Positions 8,511-20,080 of a DNA stretch of 64,000 nucleotides are shown piece after piece (within the stretch, counting starts at the first letter, position 1; each line of letters opens with the position of its first letter). The notes below the pieces were generated by a model, which searched no databases, had not been told where the DNA came from, and was given only the letters and a program-made list of their open reading frames with translations. This stretch comes from Candidatus Latescibacterota bacterium (GTDB taxonomy: Bacteria > Latescibacterota > UBA2968 > UBA8231), in assembly GCA_020852055.1 (NCBI GenBank), contig JADZBP010000098.1, forward strand, positions 1,262 through 65,261, written 5' to 3'. Made by a program: the position numbers and the translations under genes.

Positions 8511-9689
8511 ATGGCGACCATCAAACGCGTCGAGATCACCGAGTTCTCCTTCGAGGTGCACAATATCGGGCTGGAGCAGGCGGCGGCCGGGGTGGGCAAT
8601 ATGGCCTATGTCAAAGGCGGCACCTTTGGCGCCCGCCGCTTTGCCGTGCGTATCCACAGCGACGACGGGGCCAGCGGTGAATACGTCACCCACTGGGTGG
8701 GCACCCCCGCCTCGCTGGCCCAGGTCACCATGCTCGCCCCCCTGCTGGTGGGCCGCAACCCCGACCACCGCGAGCAGATCTACGACGACCTCAAACGCGA
8801 GTTGCGCGCCTACGACCACATGGGGCATGGCCCGCTCGACATCGCCCTGTGGGATCTGGCGGGCAAGCGGCACGGGGCTTCGGTGACCGCGCTGCTGGGC
8901 GGTTTCCGCCAGCGCCTGCCGGCCTACGCCAGCACCTACCACGGCCAGCAGAGCAAGGGCGGTCTCGATTCCCCCGAGGCCTTTGCCGACTTCGCCTTTG
9001 CCTGCCGCGAGGCGGGTTTTGCCGGCTTCAAGATCCACGGCTGGAACGACGGCAATATCGAGCGGGAGGTGAAGAACGTGCTGGGGGTGCGCAAGCGGGT
9101 GGGCGACGCCTGGAAGCTGATGGTCGATCCGGCCTGCCAGCTGCGCACCTGGAACGACGCGCTGCTCCTGGGCCGGGCCTGTGACGAGGCGGGTTATTTC
9201 TGGTACGAGGACCCTTACCGCGACGCGGCGGTTTCGGCGATCGGGCACCAGCGGCTGCGCGAGAAGCTGGCCACCCCGCTGCTGATCAGCGAACACGTGC
9301 GCGGCCTGGAGCAGAAAGCCAGCTTCCTGCTCCAGGGGGGATGCGACATGATCCACGCCGACCCGGAGTACGACATGGGCATCACCGGGGTGATGAAGAT
9401 CGCCCACTTCTGCGAGGCCCTGGGCCTGGACCTGCAGCTACACGCCTGCGGGCCGGCCCACCGCGCCTGTATGTCGGCCATCCGCAACACTCACCTCTAC
9501 GAGCTGGCGCTGATGGGCCCGGACATGCCCAATATCGTGCCGCCGGTCTACACCTGCGGTTATTCCGACCAGCCCGGCGATCTGGGCGAGGACGGCTGCG
9601 TGCCGGTGCCGCAGGGGCCGGGTCTGGGCGTCAGCTACGACTGGGACTTCATCGCCGCGCACCAGACCAGCCAGCGGGTCTTTGGCTGA
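8511..9689 (+). CDS. enolase-superfamily enzyme (mandelate racemase / muconate lactonizing enzyme family; probable acid-sugar dehydratase)
   Basis: The ORF is trimmed to the ATG at 8511 (MATIKRVEITEF). MR/MLE hallmarks are DIALWDLAGKRHG, FKIHGW, KLMVDPAC and YEDP. Confidence 0.85.
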   Translation: MATIKRVEITEFSFEVHNIGLEQAAAGVGNMAYVKGGTFGARRFAVRIHSDDGASGEYVTHWVGTPASLAQVTMLAPLLVGRNPDHREQIYDDLKRELRAYDHMGHGPLDIALWDLAGKRHGASVTALLGGFRQRLPAYASTYHGQQSKGGLDSPEAFADFAFACREAGFAGFKIHGWNDGNIEREVKNVLGVRKRVGDAWKLMVDPACQLRTWNDALLLGRACDEAGYFWYEDPYRDAAVSAIGHQRLREKLATPLLISEHVRGLEQKASFLLQGGCDMIHADPEYDMGITGVMKIAHFCEALGLDLQLHACGPAHRACMSAIRNTHLYELALMGPDMPNIVPPVYTCGYSDQPGDLGEDGCVPVPQGPGLGVSYDWDFIAAHQTSQRVFG

Positions 9690-11709: not shown

Positions 11710-12357
11710 TTGTCAGACAGTGTCCTGACCCTGATTGCCGAATCCGGGCCCGTCGGCAAAGGGGTGATGTTGTTGCTCCTGGGCTTTTCAGTGGCCTCGT
11801 GGGCGATCATGGGGCAGAAATACGCCGATTTCAAGCGGATCGGGGAGGAATCGGCGGCCTTTTTGAAGCTGTTCCACTCCGGGGCCGCCGCCGCCGAACT
11901 CTACCGGCAGGCCAAGACCATGAAGGGCACGCCGGTCTGCGGCCTGTTCATCGCCAGTTACGACCTGATGTACCGGGGAAGAGGCTGGGGGGGAACGCGC
12001 GAGGATCTCTGGAAAGCCGTGGGTGGGGTGGCCGGTGACCTCTTGGGGCAGACCGAAAAGAACCTCGCCTTCCTGGCAACGGTGGGCAATGTGAGCCCCT
12101 TTGTCGGTCTCTTCGGCACCGTGTGGGGCATCATGGACTCCTTCCGCAGCATTGGCCTGCAGCGCTCGGCCAACCTGGCGGTGGTGGCCCCCGGTATCGC
12201 CGAGGCCCTGATCGCCACGGCCGCCGGCCTGGTGGCCGCCATCCCGGCGGTGATCGCTTACAACCATTTCCTGGGCCGCGTCGAGGCCACCCGGCGGGAG
12301 ATGGAGCGTTTTGCCGGTGAGATGATGGGTATGCTCCAGGGTGAGAGCCGGACATGA
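11710..12357 (+). CDS. tolQ: MotA/TolQ/ExbB proton-channel protein (TolQ)
   Basis: 215 aa with a TTG start preceded by GGGGAGG. It has three TM helices and the motif [11 protein letters not shown]...[15 protein letters not shown]. It is the first gene of a tol-pal cluster. Confidence 0.9.
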
Positions 12358-12782
12358 GTTTCGGCGGAGGGCGCGGGGGCCGGCGGGCCATGTCCGATAT
12401 CAACGTCACCCCGCTGGTGGACGTGATGCTGGTGCTGCTGATCATCTTCATGATCACCGCCCCGGCCCTGCTCCAGCAGGTGGAGGTGAACCTCCCCAAA
12501 TCGACGGTGGGCCAGGCCGAAGGCAAAGAGGGATTGACGATTACCGTCAAAACCGCTGACGAGATCTTTATCGATAAAGAAAAGGTGAGCTTCAAGGACT
12601 TCGATGCGAAGTTCGCCGCCGCCCGGGTGCGCCTGGGCGACCGGGGGGTGGTGTTTTTGCAGGGTGACGAGCAGGTGCCCTACGGCCGGGTGATGGAAGT
12701 GGCGGATCGGATCAAGGGGGCCGGCGTGGACCAACTCGGGTTGGTGGTGGAGGGGGTACCGGAAAAAAGCAAAGGGCGGTGA
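12354..12782 (+). CDS. tolR: ExbD/TolR biopolymer transport protein
   Basis: 142 aa with [22 protein letters not shown]. Its start overlaps the tolQ stop by 4 nt. Confidence 0.9.
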
Positions 12783-12789
12783 AGCGCGG

Positions 12790-13455
12790 ATGAAAAAATC
12801 GGTGCTGATTTCGCTCATCGGGCATCTGCTGGCCCTGGCCAGTTTTGCCATTGGTTTCAGCCGCACCGGGCCGCCCCCTCCCCTGCCCAGCAAGGCCCGC
12901 ATGGTCAGTCTGGTCAACGCTCCGGGTGAAAAACAGCGCAGCCGCAAGACCAAGGGCGAGGCCAAACCCTCGCAGGCGGCGCCCAAGACCGAGACCGTCA
13001 AGACCAAACAGCGCACCGGCCAGAAGGTGGAGAAGGCTCCCTCCACCGAGGCCATGTCGCCCAAGGGCACCAAGAAACCCGCCAAGACCGCCAAGCAGCA
13101 GCCCAAGGCCGAGGTGCCCAAGGGGAACAGCAGCAAGAATCAGGTCGCCGAGGGGCTGTCGCTGGACAATGTGGATTTTGATGACGAGGCCTATCTAACA
13201 GCCATGGTCGACCTCATCAAAGAAGAGTGGCGCCAGCCGGTGGTGGGCCCCCATTCGGGGGTGTTGAAAACGACTATATTCTTTACTATCCTAAAAGACG
13301 GGTCCATCGACGAGCGGCGGGTCTGGGAGTCCTCCGGGGACAATAGCTTCGACCGCTCGGCGCTCAGCGCCGTCTATAGTGTGCAGTTGCCAGTTTTACC
13401 GGAAGGGTTCAAGGGCGATCAGCTTGGGGTGTATCTGGATTTTACGGAAAACTAG
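12790..13455 (+). CDS. TolA/TonB-like energy-transducer (TM anchor, Lys/Pro-rich linker, TonB_C-type domain)
   Basis: 221 aa. It has an N-terminal TM helix, a KPAKTAKQQPKAEVPK low-complexity linker and a C-terminal TonB/TolA fold (IFFTILKDGSI...SGDNSFDRSALSAV). It sits between tolR and tolB. Confidence 0.8.
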   Translation: MKKSVLISLIGHLLALASFAIGFSRTGPPPPLPSKARMVSLVNAPGEKQRSRKTKGEAKPSQAAPKTETVKTKQRTGQKVEKAPSTEAMSPKGTKKPAKTAKQQPKAEVPKGNSSKNQVAEGLSLDNVDFDDEAYLTAMVDLIKEEWRQPVVGPHSGVLKTTIFFTILKDGSIDERRVWESSGDNSFDRSALSAVYSVQLPVLPEGFKGDQLGVYLDFTEN

Positions 13456-13465
13456 TCGGGTGGCG

Positions 13466-14782
13466 ATGTTTTGTCTGGCGCTGGTTGCCGGGGCTCAGGC
13501 CCAGCAGCCGGCTGCGCCGGCAGCTGCACCCGCTGACACCCAGGGTCTGCCCTCGGTGGTCCATCTCAGCATCAAAGGCAGCGGCCGCTTGCTGCCTTTG
13601 GCGATGCTCGACTTCACCCGCGAGGGCGGCGACGCCGAGCTGGAGCAGCGCACCAAGATGGTGGGCACCTTTCTGGGCGACGACCTGCGCAACTGCGGCC
13701 GCTTCGAGGTGTTGCGCGATTCGCTGCAGGTCGACAGCACCGGTTTCGGCCCGGTATTGGATCGCTGGTCCTCGGCCGGGGCGCGGGCCCTGTTGCGCGG
13801 GGCCATGCGCCAGCGCGAGGGACGCACGGAACTCTTCGCCACCCTCTACCGGCTGCCTGACCAGCGGGTGCTGATCGCCAAGGGTTATCCCGTCGATCAG
13901 GGACAGGCCCTGGAGGCGGCCCACCGGCTGAGCAACGACATTGTCTACGCCCTGACCGGGCAGCAGGGCATCGCTTTCACCCAGATCGCCTTTGTCTCCA
14001 AGCGGCAGGGCGACAAAGAGATCTACCGGATGGGGTACGACGGATACGATCCGCGGCCGGTGACTAACGACCGGGCCATCAACTATTCGCCCGACTGGTC
14101 GCCCGACGGGCGGCAGATCGTGTACTCGTCGATGCGCAACAATGGTTGGCAGCTCTTTATCGCCGACCTGGTGGCCGGGGTGAAAACCCCTATACGCACG
14201 CCCTCGTCCTCGAACACGGCGCCGACCTGGTCGCCCGATGGCCGGCGGGTTCTATTTGCGATGAGCGGTGAGGTCAGCACGGATCTCTATACGGTTACGG
14301 TGCCGGGGTGGCAGTTGCAGCGGCTCACCGACCATCCCGAGGCCGACTCCGAGCCGGCCTGGTCGCCCGATGGCCGGCAGGTCGCCTTCACCTCCGACCG
14401 CGCCGGGTTGCAGCAGGTCTATCTGATGAACGCCGACGGCTCGGACGTGCGGCGGCTGACCTGGGAGCCCGACGCGTGTGAGGGCTCTCCGGCCTGGTCG
14501 CCCGACGGCAAACGCCTGGCCTTCGTGCGCCGGGGGTTCGACGGGTTCGATGTGCACGTGATGGAGTTGGAGGGCGGCTCCCCGGTGCGCCTGACCTCGG
14601 GGGGCAGCAACGAGGCCCCCGCCTGGTCCCCGGACGGATTGCAACTGGCCTTCAGTTCCAACCGCACCGGCAATTCCGAGATTTATGCCATGGGCTGGGA
14701 CGGCAGCAACCTGCGCCGTCTGACCTACGGAGGAGAAAACGAGATGCCCGCCTGGTCTCCCATTTCAGTCGGCAACCGTTAG
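13466..14782 (+). CDS. tolB: Tol-Pal system beta-propeller protein TolB
   Basis: The start is trimmed to the ATG at 13466, giving signal peptide MFCLALVAGAQA (an in-frame GTG at 13460 is also possible). The repeated motif is P.WSPDG..[ILV][AV]F.S.R.G in at least 5 copies. Confidence 0.92.
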   Translation: MFCLALVAGAQAQQPAAPAAAPADTQGLPSVVHLSIKGSGRLLPLAMLDFTREGGDAELEQRTKMVGTFLGDDLRNCGRFEVLRDSLQVDSTGFGPVLDRWSSAGARALLRGAMRQREGRTELFATLYRLPDQRVLIAKGYPVDQGQALEAAHRLSNDIVYALTGQQGIAFTQIAFVSKRQGDKEIYRMGYDGYDPRPVTNDRAINYSPDWSPDGRQIVYSSMRNNGWQLFIADLVAGVKTPIRTPSSSNTAPTWSPDGRRVLFAMSGEVSTDLYTVTVPGWQLQRLTDHPEADSEPAWSPDGRQVAFTSDRAGLQQVYLMNADGSDVRRLTWEPDACEGSPAWSPDGKRLAFVRRGFDGFDVHVMELEGGSPVRLTSGGSNEAPAWSPDGLQLAFSSNRTGNSEIYAMGWDGSNLRRLTYGGENEMPAWSPISVGNR

Positions 14783-14881
14783 ACTCGCGCATCTTTGCAC
14801 AAGGAGGTCATATCGTCTATGAGAGCGCAGCAATTTTCCACGCAGTACCTTTTTCCTATCCCCTCAAAGAAAGGACGTACT

Positions 14882-15499
14882 ATGCGTACATCCACCCGTT
14901 TCACCAAGTTGTTCCTGGTCTGCAGCATCGCTGCTGCCAGTGTCGTGGCCTATGGCTGCGGTGGTAAGCCGATGCAGCAGGCGATGCAGGGCGAGATGGA
15001 CAAGGCCAAGGCCGATGCCGAAGCCAAGGCCAAGGCCGAAGCCGAGCGGATGAAGGCCGAAGCCGAAGCCAAGGCCCGCAAGGCCAAGGAAGACATGGAA
15101 GCCAAGCTGAAGGGTGATGCCGATGCCGAGGCCCGCATGAAGGCCGAAGCTGCCGCCCGCGCTGCCCGCACCTACGAGACCACCTATTTCGATTACGACA
15201 AGTCCAATATCCGCGACGACCAGAAGGCGGGGCTCACCCAGAACGCCGACAAGCTGAAGGGCAATGCGGATATCAAGGCGACGGTCGAGGGTCATTGCGA
15301 CGAGCGCGGCACCGCCGAGTACAATATCGCCCTGGGCCAGAAGCGCGCCGAGAGCGCCAAGTCCTTCCTGGTCAAGGCTGGCGTCGCCGCCGACCGTCTC
15401 AAGACCGTCAGCCTGGGCAAGGAACGTCCCGCCGACGCCGGCCACACCGAGGCTGCCTGGGCCAAGAACCGGCGCGTCGAGATCGTCGCGGCTCCTTAA
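14882..15499 (+). CDS. pal: peptidoglycan-associated lipoprotein Pal (OmpA family)
   Basis: It starts at the ATG at 14882 and has a lipobox (VVAYGCGG). A Lys/Ala/Glu-rich linker is followed by an OmpA_C domain (VEGHCDERGTAEYNIALGQKRAESAK...NRRVEIV). Confidence 0.92.
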   Translation: MRTSTRFTKLFLVCSIAAASVVAYGCGGKPMQQAMQGEMDKAKADAEAKAKAEAERMKAEAEAKARKAKEDMEAKLKGDADAEARMKAEAAARAARTYETTYFDYDKSNIRDDQKAGLTQNADKLKGNADIKATVEGHCDERGTAEYNIALGQKRAESAKSFLVKAGVAADRLKTVSLGKERPADAGHTEAAWAKNRRVEIVAAP

Positions 15500-15507
15500 G
15501 ACCTCCG

Positions 15508-16296
15508 ATGCGTTTCAGCCTCCTGCTCCTGGGGTTGGCCTGTCTGGGCGCAACGGGTTGCGCCCAGCAGGTCACCCTCAAAAAAATGCGCCTGGAAAAC
15601 CAGGAGATGGCCAGGCAGATAACCGCCCTGGACAGCCTCCTGCGCGTCCGCGAGGTCGAAGGTGAGCGGCGGTGGATCGAAGGGTCCACCGACAACGACG
15701 ACCTCAAGCGGCAGGTGCAGCAGGTGCAGGATCGGCTCGACAACGTCGCCAGGCGGCTAGCCGACCTGGCCAAGGATCTGGAGTCCCTTCGTTTATCCAG
15801 CGGCAGCAAGGGGCGCCCCTCCGCGGGGCGCCCCCCTGTCGCCGCCCCTGATACCGCCAAATCCCCGCAACAGGCGCTGCTCCTGGCCGACCCTCAGGAG
15901 TTGTACAACCTGGCCTACAAGGACATGGAGGCCGGCAACTACGCCCTGGCCATTGCCGAGTTCTCCCAGGTCCTCGACAATTTTCCGCAAAGCCAGTTGA
16001 GCGACAACGCCTGCTACTGGCTGGGCGAGTGTTATTACGCGCAGAAGGATTTCCCCAAAGCCGCCGAGATGTTTCAGCGCTTGTTGAAAGAGTACCCTCA
16101 GGGCGAGAAGGTGCCCGGCGCCCTGCTCAAGCTGGGATATTCCCTGGCCGAACAGAAGGACCAGGTCAAGGCCGCTGCCGCCCCGCTGCGCGAGGTGATC
16201 GAGAAATTTCCTGACGCGCCAGAAGCCAAACTGGCCAAAGAAAAACTCAAGGCCCTCGGCCCACCCGGCAAACCGGCGGCGGGCAAGCGCCGGTGA
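15508..16296 (+). CDS. cpoB: Tol-Pal system protein YbgF/CpoB (coiled coil + TPR)
   Basis: It starts at the ATG at 15508 with a lipoprotein-type signal (LACLGATGCAQ). A coiled coil is followed by the YbgF TPR block (YNLAYKDMEAGNYALAIAEFSQVLDNFPQSQLSDNACYWLGECYY). Confidence 0.88.
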   Translation: MRFSLLLLGLACLGATGCAQQVTLKKMRLENQEMARQITALDSLLRVREVEGERRWIEGSTDNDDLKRQVQQVQDRLDNVARRLADLAKDLESLRLSSGSKGRPSAGRPPVAAPDTAKSPQQALLLADPQELYNLAYKDMEAGNYALAIAEFSQVLDNFPQSQLSDNACYWLGECYYAQKDFPKAAEMFQRLLKEYPQGEKVPGALLKLGYSLAEQKDQVKAAAAPLREVIEKFPDAPEAKLAKEKLKALGPPGKPAAGKRR

Positions 16297-16907
16297 GCGA
16301 GGCCGGCGGGAGGGAGTTCATCCTGCGGGCGCGCAAAGCCCCCACCTCTCCCGTGTTCTCCCTGGACGACCTGGCCCGGGCCGGCCATCTGGAAATCGTG
16401 GCCCACTGCGTGGCCAATGCCCTGTTCATTTCCGGGCAGATCCGGCCCGCCATCGCGGTTCATCTCGTCCTCGAAGGGGCTCCGGCCCCGCCCCGGACCA
16501 TCCGGCTGGAGAGCGATACCCTCTGTTCCCTGGGTGGCTTCGACGAGCGCTCCATCTGCCAACTGGTGCAGCAGGCGCTGAAGGTCGGCCGCGACCTGAA
16601 ACTGGGCGAGGAACTGCGGGTGGACAGCGGGGTCTACATCGCCAAACGGAGTTTTGAACAGCTGGTCCGCGAGAAAAGCACCGCCGCGCCGCTGTACTAC
16701 CTGCAGCCGCGGGGAGAGGATATACGCGCCGTGGAGTTTTCGCTGCCAGCGGCCTTTGTGTTCTCCGACCACCTGTCCATGCCCAAGAAAACCGACAAGT
16801 ACCTGGCCCGTCTGGGCGCCCGCCCGCTCTCGGTGGGACCCCGGCGGCTCTTTGCCTCGCAGTGTATCGTGCTGGTCCACAATGAGCTGGACCGGCAGCG
16901 GCGGTGA
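16293..16907 (+). CDS. TrmY-like SPOUT methyltransferase (DUF358 / tRNA pseudouridine-N1 methyltransferase family)
   Basis: 204 aa with a GTG start overlapping the cpoB stop (GTGA). By eye it is collinear with my recollection of archaeal TrmY (quoted from memory, not aligned). The matching blocks are REFILRA..., FSLDDL..AG.L, CV.NALFIS..IR, FVFSDH and LSVGPRRLFASQCIVLVHNELDR. Confidence 0.7.
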   Translation: MSEAGGREFILRARKAPTSPVFSLDDLARAGHLEIVAHCVANALFISGQIRPAIAVHLVLEGAPAPPRTIRLESDTLCSLGGFDERSICQLVQQALKVGRDLKLGEELRVDSGVYIAKRSFEQLVREKSTAAPLYYLQPRGEDIRAVEFSLPAAFVFSDHLSMPKKTDKYLARLGARPLSVGPRRLFASQCIVLVHNELDRQRR

Positions 16908-16929
16908 ACTCCCCATCCGGAGGCGCTCC

Positions 16930-17226
16930 ATGCTGGGCAATCTCTCCATCATCAGTTCGGGATTGGCGCTGAGCCAGCAGCGGCTGGAGGCGTCGGCACA
17001 CAATACCGCCAACCTCAATACCCGGCCTTCGGCTGCCCTGCGCGTCGAAGCAGGCGAAGGGGCCCAGGGGGGAGTCGAGGGGACGGTGGTCGCCGGCGAG
17101 GGGCCGTCCAGTCCGGTGGTCGAGAGTGTGGAGCAGATCGCGGTCACCTACCAGGTCGTCGCCCTGAAAAAAGCACTGCAGACCCAGTCGGAGATGGTGG
17201 GCCGGTTGTTGGATCTGGAAGCCTGA
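16930..17226 (+). CDS. 98-aa flagellar-rod-like mini-protein (FlgB/FlgC-type N- and C-terminal helices only)
   Basis: The ATG at 16930 is preceded by GGAGG. The N-terminus LSIISSGLALSQQRLEASAHNTANLNT matches the rod-protein signature (..ANxxT). The C-terminus VEQIAVTYQVVALKKALQTQSEMVGRLLDL resembles the rod/hook C-terminal helix. There is no central domain. Confidence 0.55.
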   Translation: MLGNLSIISSGLALSQQRLEASAHNTANLNTRPSAALRVEAGEGAQGGVEGTVVAGEGPSSPVVESVEQIAVTYQVVALKKALQTQSEMVGRLLDLEA

Positions 17227-17238
17227 GACCCGGGAGCC

Positions 17239-18000
17239 ATGTTCAAAGGCAGGCGTTTCACCCTGTTGTTCATCCCCGAAGAGGGGGACCGGACCCTGGA
17301 ATACAAGCTGTCCCGGGGCGCCTTGTGGTTCTGGCTCTCGCTGGCCGGGGTGGTCGTGGTGCTGGTGCTGACCGGGCTGCGCTCCACCGCGGAGATGTAC
17401 CGCCTCGAAAAGAAGGTGGCGCGCCTCGAAAAGGAGAAGGAGTCCCTGGGCGAGCAGATGGACCAAATCGCCGAACTCGAGCAGGTGCTCCTGCGCCTCC
17501 AGCGCAGCAACCGGCAGTTACACATCATCCTGGGCGAGGGCAACGCGTTGGAGGCAGCTTCCCTGCCCGACGTCGAGCATACCGGGGTCGATCAGTACGT
17601 CTCCTCCCTCGACCGGCTGCGCTGGGGCCGGCTGCGTTCGTTGCCCAGCCTGTGGCCGGTGAGCGGGGTGGTGAAGCGCCCCTTCAGCCCCGACTTCCAG
17701 GCAGTGCTGATCGCCGCCCCGCCCCAGAGCCTGGTGCGGGCCAGCGCCGCCGGCCTGGTGGTGAAGGCCACCTTCGACGAGCGCCTGGGGCACCTGGTGG
17801 TGCTGGACCACGGCAACGGGCTGACCAGTGAATACGGCTACAATCAGATGCTGCTGGTCAAACAGGGGCAGCAGATCCAGAAGGGCCAACCCCTGGCTCT
17901 GTCGGGCCGTTCCGGTGCGGCCGAAAGCCCGGGGCTGTATTATGCCGTGATCGAAAACGGCCGCCGCCGCGATCCCCAACGCTATCGGTTGTGGCTGTGA
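17239..18000 (+). CDS. membrane-anchored coiled-coil protein with degenerate LytM (M23) domain (EnvC/NlpD-like, predicted non-catalytic)
   Basis: 253 aa with a TM helix (ALWFWLSLAGVVVVLVLTGL) and a coiled coil. The M23 fold is recognisable (HLVVLDHGNGLTSEYGYN...GQPLALSGRSG). The Zn ligands are missing: the HxxxD region reads FQAVLIAAP, and HLHFE reads GLYYAVIE. Confidence 0.8.
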   Translation: MFKGRRFTLLFIPEEGDRTLEYKLSRGALWFWLSLAGVVVVLVLTGLRSTAEMYRLEKKVARLEKEKESLGEQMDQIAELEQVLLRLQRSNRQLHIILGEGNALEAASLPDVEHTGVDQYVSSLDRLRWGRLRSLPSLWPVSGVVKRPFSPDFQAVLIAAPPQSLVRASAAGLVVKATFDERLGHLVVLDHGNGLTSEYGYNQMLLVKQGQQIQKGQPLALSGRSGAAESPGLYYAVIENGRRRDPQRYRLWL

Positions 18001-18353
18001 GCGCGGGACGCGAACCCAGGGAGAGCGGCACCGGTCACACGGTGATCGGCCGGGGCACGGTGCTGGAAGGGGTGCTCAAGATGGAGCACAGCCTGCGCAT
18101 CGAGGGGGTGGTGAAGGGCGAGTTGGTCGCCGCCAATTCCCTGGTGGTCAGCGCTCAAGGAGAGTTGGAGGCCGGCCTCATCGAGGTGGGGGAGGCGGTG
18201 ATCAGCGGCAGGGTGGTGGGCAAACTGCGGGCGCGGGTGCGGGTTTATGTATCGGCCGGGGCCGTATTCCACGGCAGCGTGGAGACGCCCCAACTGGTCA
18301 TCGAGGAAGGGGCGGTGTTTGTGCAGTCGCTCCCCACCGGCAAGGGCGGCTGA
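17991..18353 (+). CDS. bactofilin (DUF583 polymer-forming cytoskeletal protein)
   Basis: 120 aa with a GTG start that overlaps the LytM-gene stop. It shows the typical beta-helical repeat (IGRGTVLEGVLKMEHSLRIEGVVKGELVAANSLVVSAQGELEAGLIEVGEAVISGRVVGKL...VETPQLVIEEGAVF). Confidence 0.88.
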   Translation: MAVSAGREPRESGTGHTVIGRGTVLEGVLKMEHSLRIEGVVKGELVAANSLVVSAQGELEAGLIEVGEAVISGRVVGKLRARVRVYVSAGAVFHGSVETPQLVIEEGAVFVQSLPTGKGG

Positions 18354-18381: not shown

Positions 18382-18412
18382 AGGCGCGTGGCCCTTTGCG
18401 GACCACGCGCCT
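18382..18412. terminator. bidirectional intrinsic terminator between convergent bactofilin and groEL genes
   Basis: The stem aggcgcgtgg / ccacgcgcct is a perfect 10 bp. It is preceded by AAAAAAA and followed by TTTATT. Confidence 0.85.

Positions 18413-18442: not shown

Positions 18443-20080
<1,638 letters not shown>

Follow-up and report, generated by a model that had tools for sequence, protein, structure and literature searches.

The Tol-Pal genes of Escherichia coli form the canonical operon ybgC-tolQRA-tolB-pal-cpoB; TrmY (MJ1640) is the archaeal tRNA pseudouridine-54 N1-methyltransferase; and in Helicobacter pylori the dead M23 protein Csd2 is encoded beside the bactofilin CcmA. All three bear on the ten-gene run, from tolQ to a bactofilin gene, that we describe here in 64,000 nucleotides of DNA from a Candidatus Latescibacterota bacterium (GenBank assembly GCA_020852055.1, contig JADZBP010000098.1, positions 1,262 to 65,261; "the window" is this whole stretch). 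The window is part of contig C98 of a 5.6-Mb metagenome-assembled genome (MAG), 92% complete. After six Tol-Pal/CpoB genes the run carries four more, for a TrmY-like SPOUT methyltransferase, a 98-residue "mini-rod" protein resembling the flagellar rod protein FlgC, a catalytically dead M23 (LytM) protein and a bactofilin. The closest described system to the last two is BacA-LmdC of Hyphomonas neptunium and Rhodospirillum rubrum: LmdC is a bitopic protein whose transmembrane helix is accompanied by a coiled coil and an M23 domain and whose conserved β-hairpin, in the cytoplasm, binds the bactofilin BacA; M23 and bactofilin genes are adjacent in 226 species (Pöhl et al., PMC10945521). In Pseudomonas aeruginosa the BacA-LmdC pair is extended to LmdC-Baf-Api (2026 preprint, bioRxiv 10.64898/2026.10.09.758143).

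A sequence-only reading of the window had taken the four genes behind cpoB for an undescribed envelope-constriction or cell-shape module grafted onto Tol-Pal. Our comparison leads elsewhere: with moderate confidence, we see the locus as a composite operon that arose by stepwise accretion, not as a dedicated Tol-Pal extension. Because nested layers of conservation confine the tol-pal adjacency to one genus, the linkage to Tol-Pal is recent and probably a matter of co-transcription, not the sign of a conserved Tol-Pal machine. New here are a LmdC orthologue that has apparently become catalytically dead across a whole family, and a large family of mini-rod proteins, found almost only in flagellated genomes and often encoded behind a sigma-28-type motif.

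We compared 168 genomes of the phylum, 132 of them in the window's class (families f1 to f4; the window belongs to family f1, genus g1), and searched the window proteins by tblastn against 18-kb loci of the relatives. Conservation falls into three nested layers: the M23-bactofilin pair is phylum-wide, trmY and the mini-rod gene join it in family f1, and tolQRAB-pal-cpoB joins these in genus g1. In the outermost layer, 135 of the 168 genomes encode a full-length LmdC orthologue, and in nearly all of these there is just one full-length copy. Outside f1, at least 40 genomes have a bactofilin gene behind it on the same strand, within about 60–300 nt. The pair is of the published BacA-LmdC type, and the word "undescribed" does not apply to it. 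Families f2 to f4 have the mini-rod gene, trmY and lytM, all dispersed and megabases apart (at 1.16, 7.01 and 3.84 Mb in G059; G098 and G097 are alike), and only lytM and the bactofilin gene remain together. In the middle layer, within f1, the cassette takes the forms trmY-rod-lytM-bac, trmY-lytM-bac, trmY-lytM, rod-lytM-bac, lytM-bac and lytM alone, and trmY, the mini-rod gene and the bactofilin gene have each been lost independently. This separate loss, with the dispersal in the sister families, speaks against the four genes being one obligate unit.

The innermost layer is sharply bounded. The ten genes, together with the convergent groEL-lipB-icd block, are kept in all four other genomes of genus g1 (5/5 with the window), and in these five the GGTGA junction of cpoB and trmY is invariant while nearby codons vary; the synteny of the four genes with tol-pal is therefore real. 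At least 10 other f1 genera also have the cassette convergent to groEL (the groEL-lipB-icd block is a stable anchor for it throughout the family), without tol-pal upstream. Outside genus g1 the cassette is preceded by a divergent, unrelated gene, in G025 one for a glucose/sorbosone dehydrogenase (GSDH) with a T9SS sorting tail. The "graft" onto Tol-Pal accordingly holds for the genus and fails for the rest of the family. The tol-pal-cpoB genes of the window were compared with L105–L109. In a sister family, G042 has an orthologous tol-pal cluster, 47–59% identical to that of genus g1, which stops at cpoB; CpoB-like matches in other f1 genera reach only about 30% identity and lie outside tol clusters. 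On these two observations, horizontal acquisition of tol-pal by genus g1 is one possibility.

Some f1 lineages deserve a separate mention. Several non-flagellated ones, represented by L088 (G143), L102 (G149), L091 (G006) and L092 (G021), have lost the bactofilin gene beside lytM together with trmY and the mini-rod gene, so that lytM is directly convergent with groEL; G014 and G019 are non-flagellated, yet retain the bactofilin gene. A link within f1 between loss of the bactofilin gene beside LmdC and loss of flagella was looked into; the raw counts are suggestive but collapse to about 3/5 lineages, on which we base no claim.

The M23 and bactofilin genes of the window are the known LmdC-BacA module. 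As in H. neptunium and R. rubrum (PMC10945521), the two genes are adjacent and overlapping, the pair is widely kept, here throughout the phylum, and the M23 protein is bitopic, with a predicted cytoplasmic β-hairpin, a transmembrane helix and, in the periplasm, a coiled coil followed by the M23 domain at the C-terminus. In the AlphaFold2 (AF2) model a helix at residues 26–97 (hydrophobic at 28–50, then coiled coil) is joined by a linker to the M23 domain, which reaches pLDDT >90; the N-terminal hairpin, FTLLFIPEEGDRTLEYK, is modelled as strands 7–11 and 20–24, at low pLDDT. In an alignment of LmdC orthologues (L026, L031, L037 and L088–L103 with the window gene), its motif R.FTLLIIPEEG.RT.EFK is conserved across the phylum.

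Unlike BacA-LmdC, the M23 protein of the window's family has lost the HxxxD and HxH motifs. In the window HxxxD reads FQAVLIAA, YxH reads YGYN and HxH reads PGLYYAV; all three are degenerate, which bears out the earlier description of a catalytically dead LytM domain. All eight sampled f1 orthologues (the window included) lack HxxxD and HxH, and the same eight lack an insert of 9–17 residues before the first motif, while sampled orthologues of f2, f4, f8 and f10 keep H.G.D, YGH and PHLH(Y/F)E; one f9 representative is likewise degenerate. With HxxxD and HxH lost, the f1 protein is not expected to act as a DD-endopeptidase, and its LytM domain is predicted to be unable to cleave peptidoglycan. 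The residues point to a switch from enzyme to pseudo-enzyme throughout family f1, and the degeneracy would be secondary, because the sister-family orthologues are active enzymes by motif.

The nearest PDB and NCBIfam matches of the protein are the degenerate LytM domains of EnvC, and it shares with EnvC, NlpD, DipM and Csd2 both the degenerate domain and a coiled coil before it. It is not the organism's EnvC: it reaches 76.9 bits with the EnvC model NF008644, whose cut-off is 270, the alignment covers the LytM domain only, and architecture and active orthologues rule it out as well. EnvC is soluble and periplasmic, with a long coiled-coil hairpin docked on FtsX, and is bound by FtsEX, whereas the window protein is membrane-anchored with a predicted cytoplasmic hairpin; and in contrast to EnvC, NlpD, DipM and Csd2, it has sister-family orthologues that are active enzymes. 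The comparison with P. aeruginosa brings out two further differences. The window linker has no Gly-Gly autoprocessing site, since sequence inspection found no GG dipeptide in residues 1–150, and the locus has no Api-like bitopic partner, a soluble FlgC-like protein being encoded upstream instead. We considered the mini-rod protein as an Api/PA0663-like partner of LmdC and rejected it: Api is bitopic with a β-sandwich, the mini-rod has no transmembrane helix and a FlgC fold. Elsewhere in the genome lie two intact M23 paralogues (contigs C321 and C265) and one Amidase_3 gene (C325), whose products could be target enzymes of the dead LmdC.

By fold and distribution the mini-rod protein is a FlgC-like axial protein in miniature, associated with flagella; it belongs to a large uncharacterised family, whose members measure about 100–120 residues. 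By itself the 98-residue protein scores 13.6 against the Pfam Flg_bb_rod cut-off of 20.7, and an orthologue scores 22.7 against the Flg_bbr_C cut-off of 23, while a 27-sequence profile matches PDB entries of FlgE, FlgG and FlgC at both termini (1e-11 to 1e-7). The AF2 model (pLDDT 86.6) consists of a helix at residues 2–27, a β-hairpin and a helix at 62–97, and Foldseek places it on the Salmonella proximal-rod chain 7cg0_p with a TM score of 0.89 at 1.8 Å; proximal-rod chains of 129–132 residues (7cg0_p: 129) were taken as FlgC from their length. With Salmonella FlgC (PDB 7cg0, 7bin) it shares the N- and C-terminal D0 helices, an ANxxT-like motif (SAHNTAN), the C-terminal rod motif and the β-hairpin between the helices. 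It differs in its length of 98 residues (134 in Salmonella FlgC), in being encoded away from flagellar clusters, between trmY and lytM, and in lying, in relatives, behind a late (sigma-28) promoter motif and not a rod-class promoter. Identification as FliE or YjfB found no sequence or Pfam support.

The window's genome is flagellated, with rod and hook genes on contigs C91 and C174, a normal FlgC candidate (a 167-residue frame) on C174, and a short FlgJ that is rod-binding only, without a hydrolase domain. Among the 132 genomes of the class, 33 have the mini-rod gene together with flagellar rod/hook genes, 4 the mini-rod gene only, 16 flagellar genes only and 79 neither (odds ratio 41, Fisher p = 8e-15, with genomes counted without correction for phylogeny); the four carriers without flagellar genes are MAGs of 76–91% completeness. 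Outside the phylum, orphan copies with unrelated neighbours occur in Roseateles/Paucibacter, Acidovorax, Bradymonadia/Myxococcota and Nitrospirota, and 11/11 of these carriers have rod and hook genes. The rod-like gene thus goes with flagella and not with Tol-Pal. At 50% identity and E ≤1e-10 the family comprises at least 1192 clusters, and the best 150 of them are almost all 95–135 residues long; databases name its members "flagellar basal body (rod) protein" or hypothetical only, and there is no curated model for it. Among its loci are the window copy, L070, L072, L075 and L078–L086. At L037 (G017), around 9210–9300, a 13-nt unit, GCTAAAGCGGATC, stands in about six tandem copies, closely followed by a CCGATAT box and the start of the mini-rod gene.

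We scanned ≤150 nt upstream of mini-rod starts for the sigma-28 motif, TAAA-N14-16-GCCGATAA, with ≤2 mismatches, and found it in 14 of 41 loci, of about ten lineages (per-locus shuffle p ≤0.035; binomial p ≈6e-11); the Acidovorax copy has a perfect motif. Genera g15 and g13 have the motif between trmY and the mini-rod gene, with the mini-rod, lytM and bactofilin genes following at gaps of 5–21 nt, so that it would drive all three together. The window's genome served as positive control. Motifs that are exact or have one mismatch stand before the genes of three flagellins, a FlgM-like protein and a CheV-like protein; those of the flagellins and the FlgM-like protein lie on the minus strand of contig C2 (2332, 22747, 29321 and 30738), and from these sequences the candidate phylum appears to use a late flagellar promoter of the E. 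coli type. Genus g1 itself has no sigma-28 motif before its mini-rod gene: the closest sequence shows 5 mismatches, and only 22 nt separate the gene from trmY. A motif with 2 mismatches inside cpoB, at 15596, was put down to chance, about 0.8 such being expected in the scanned region, and a sigma-54 scan upstream of mini-rod genes gave nothing better than 3 mismatches. Far from the operon, at about 60384 on the minus strand of the window (C98:61645), stands a sigma-28-like motif with one mismatch, TAAA-N14-GCCGATAC; the best open reading frame downstream, with a GC3 as low as 0.55, is probably no gene.

The TrmY-like protein has the full-length PF04013 SPOUT fold (COG1901/PF04013) and scores above the NCBIfam equivalog cut-off; its PDB matches are 2qwv (Vibrio VC_A1059, 2e-41) and MJ1640 (2e-30), and also 2qmm and 3aia. 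The gene is found in 57 of the 168 genomes, all of the window's class, at about 60% identity, and 17 non-flagellated genomes of genus g19 (f2) carry it unlinked to the other cassette genes. Its distribution is that of a lineage-specific gene for RNA modification, which stands in this operon by chance. Sequence membership is shared with the archaeal enzyme; the host, in contrast, is bacterial. Archaeal TrmY requires the pseudouridine-54 made by Pus10 (PMC9508554); bacteria normally carry m5U54 (PMC6380271).

The layout reported from the sequence alone has stood up: the open reading frames, Pfam and NCBIfam together bear out every named gene, and the ten lie on one strand with neighbours that overlap or stand ≤99 nt apart (Table 1). 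From tolQ to the bactofilin gene the gaps are −4, 7, ≈10, 99 (the widest, between tolB and pal), 5, −4, 22, 12 and −10 nt; the start of tolB was set at the Met before the signal peptide, its frame being open from 13379. All six genes from tolQ to cpoB are recognisable and in E. coli order, tolQ-tolR-tolA-tolB-pal-cpoB. In contrast to the E. coli operon there is no ybgC, and the cluster runs on past cpoB into the four further genes, in an arrangement confined to genus g1. At the passage into the cassette the GTG start of trmY overlaps the TGA stop of cpoB (GTGA), as had been described; an alternative GTG start of the bactofilin gene at 17997 would create a second GTGA overlap, with the lytM stop.

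The plus strand carries no strong terminator from tolQ as far as the hairpin behind the bactofilin gene, the terminator scan giving stems of 5–6 bp only, all within coding sequence. The hairpin itself had been called single, strong and perfect. Its position as the first strong terminator holds; its perfection does not, as the plus strand has one C.A mismatch in the stem and a weaker tail, TTTATTCGTTTA. On the minus strand it scores as a terminator with a T7 tail, and hence terminates groEL. Since it folds at about −39 kcal/mol on either strand (z ≈ −5), it is a bidirectional terminator common to the operon and groEL, not private to the operon. The convergent groEL has no adjoining groES, and a second groEL, 72% identical, is found on contig C80.

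Table 1. Features of the tolQ-bactofilin run and its 3' neighbour, in window coordinates.
Feature	Coordinates	Strand	Evidence and remarks
tolQ	11710..12357	+	PF01618, 2.1e-32; MotA_ExbB; 4-nt overlap with tolR
tolR	12354..12782	+	PF02472 (ExbD), 3.2e-28
tolA-like, TonB_2 C-terminal domain	12790..13455	+	PF13103, 4e-10
tolB	~13466..14782	+	PD40 repeats 4e-53, TolB_N 5e-06
pal lipoprotein	14882..15499	+	TIGR02802, 135.6 bits (cut-off 125); lipobox AYGC
cpoB/ybgF	15505..16296	+	TIGR02795, 116.5 bits (cut-off 90.1)
TrmY-like SPOUT methyltransferase	16293..16907	+	PF04013, 8e-55; NF002560, 205.6 (cut-off 183)
98-aa FlgC-like mini-rod protein	16930..17226	+	D0 helices and β-hairpin, without core domain
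LmdC-type M23 protein, predicted catalytically dead	17239..18000	+	PF01551, 5.6e-21, residues 155-246
Bactofilin	17991..18353	+	PF04519, 1.6e-20; 73.6 bits (cut-off 27.9)
Intrinsic terminator hairpin, bidirectional	18382..18412	both	Terminator scan and folding
groEL, convergent neighbour	20068..18443	-	Anchors the cassette position throughout family f1

Transcript evidence comes from two metatranscriptome runs, the only ones with material from the organism, with one informative contig each. In a sediment run a 993-nt contig, 99.4% identical, covers 14874–15866, from pal into cpoB. In the other run a 242-nt contig with one mismatch covers 16277–16518, which takes in 20 nt at the 3' end of cpoB and 226 nt from the start of trmY. 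On co-transcription the RNA thus offers one contig that crosses the junction in one run, and nothing over 16447–17610 in the other. The contigs are compatible with read-through and too thin as proof of it; the structural argument, from zero intergenic space, an invariant overlap and no terminator, is the stronger of the two.

On this basis, the composite operon that we favour can be described step by step, with all binding steps taken from analogy. Gene identities, nested conservation, catalytic death, the correlation with flagella and the invariant junction are shown; binding of the hairpin, the activator or scaffold role, read-through and any benefit of co-expression are inferred. The core is the ancestral, phylum-wide LmdC-bactofilin pair. 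In it, polymerised bactofilin at the cytoplasmic side of the membrane would bind the M23 protein by its N-terminal β-hairpin, as BacA binds that of LmdC, and so determine where on the wall its periplasmic coiled coil and LytM domain are active. In family f1 the LytM domain has lost all zinc and catalytic residues, and most likely became a positioned regulator or scaffold for another hydrolase, in the manner of EnvC, NlpD and Csd2. A housekeeping-type gene for a TrmY-like RNA methyltransferase would have come to lie upstream in the same family, as would the 98-residue FlgC-like gene, which in relatives would belong to the flagellar (sigma-28) regulon. Finally, in genus g1, tolQRAB-pal-cpoB would have been placed directly ahead of the cassette, with the cpoB stop overlapping the trmY start. 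Because this overlap leaves no room for the former promoter region, transcription of the four cassette genes most likely comes by read-through from the tol-pal promoters, with translational coupling, and co-expression with Tol-Pal may bring a benefit of its own.

Several points weigh against this accretion. The sediment run that gave the pal-cpoB contig showed nothing over 16447–17610, which would fit weaker or separate expression of the cassette; the 242-nt junction contig has a depth of 2.3, begins only 16 nt upstream of trmY, and may equally be an internal start or DNA carry-over. In addition, tol-pal may either have been lost or replaced in the other f1 genera or been re-acquired by genus g1, and selection for co-expression with Tol-Pal, not accident, may be why all five species of the genus have kept the fusion. 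One alternative, the earlier view, is that the four genes are a new envelope-constriction or cell-shape module acting physically with Tol-Pal/CpoB, for example by positioning amidase activation at the constriction site. The tight fusion with its translational coupling, kept in the genus, would suit such a module, as would the envelope-acting nature of both gene sets, the likeness of the dead LytM domain to EnvC, a divisome amidase activator, and the RNA contig across the cpoB/trmY junction. Set against these are the restriction of the tol-pal linkage to one genus, the far greater age of the cassette and the LmdC-bactofilin pair, otherwise never beside tol-pal, the orthologous cluster in G042 that stops at cpoB, and the lack of any envelope-constriction logic in TrmY and the mini-rod; we regard the proposal as very unlikely. 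The opposite extreme, that chance has placed the four genes next to tol-pal with internal promoters of their own, so that they are not co-transcribed with it and the overlap is a by-product of genome compaction, would accommodate both the missing contigs over 16447–17610 and the start of the junction contig so close to trmY, and the sigma-70 scan misses promoters of this phylum. Such independence sits poorly with a 4-nt stop/start overlap, zero intergenic space, no terminator between cpoB and trmY, and a junction invariant in five species though neighbouring codons vary, and we consider it distinctly improbable.

The remaining alternative concerns the cassette itself. The mini-rod, the dead LmdC and the bactofilin could form a flagellum-linked unit for wall remodelling, or a basal-body accessory unit. 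The bactofilin would mark the place, and the dead LmdC would recruit or activate a hydrolase at the point where the peptidoglycan has to let the rod through; the FlgC-like protein, leaving the cell by flagellar type III export, would make the link to the rod. The tracking of flagellar genes by the mini-rod gene (33/4/16/79 in the class, 11/11 carriers outside the phylum) argues for this, as do the sigma-28 motif in 14/41 loci, which in g15 and g13 would drive all three genes and which precedes flagellin and FlgM-like genes in the window's own genome, a FlgJ without hydrolase domain, and the loss of bactofilin beside LmdC in several non-flagellated f1 lineages. In Bacillus subtilis, moreover, hook and filament do not assemble properly without bactofilins, and a suppressor mutation lies in the rod gene flhO (PMC9103452). 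Yet the LmdC-bactofilin pair is retained in non-flagellated lineages (f2 genus g19, G014, G019), the mini-rod gene outside f1 is never beside an M23 or bactofilin gene, genus g1 has no sigma-28 motif upstream of it, and the flagellated f1 members G007, G024, G145 and G033 do without it. We rate the flagellar unit as possible, with a modest chance of being right. A broader version of it, to which we give a similarly modest chance, would have an LmdC-type endopeptidase turned into a dead, bactofilin-positioned adaptor and wired, with a secreted mini-rod, into the sigma-28 programme as a device that couples wall remodelling to basal-body assembly, later re-wired to Tol-Pal expression in genus g1; separately, the mini-rod family, with lineages in Burkholderiales, Nitrospirota, Myxococcota/Bradymonadia and Latescibacterota, would be a new and widespread flagellar component or regulator.

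The tolQ-bactofilin layout is thus real, and mostly a recent accident of gene order around a known cell-wall module. It carries a caution, in that function is not readable from a tight operon in a single genome: the "Tol-Pal extension" dissolves over about 170 related genomes. It also extends the BacA-LmdC paradigm to a candidate phylum, and there provides a natural experiment, for an LmdC that appears to have lost catalysis family-wide has kept its bactofilin partner and its hairpin motif; a non-enzymatic role in positioning or activating is therefore implied for this class of proteins. Finally, a large family of FlgC-like proteins of about 100 residues is flagged, which is directly testable in cultured Acidovorax and Roseateles strains.

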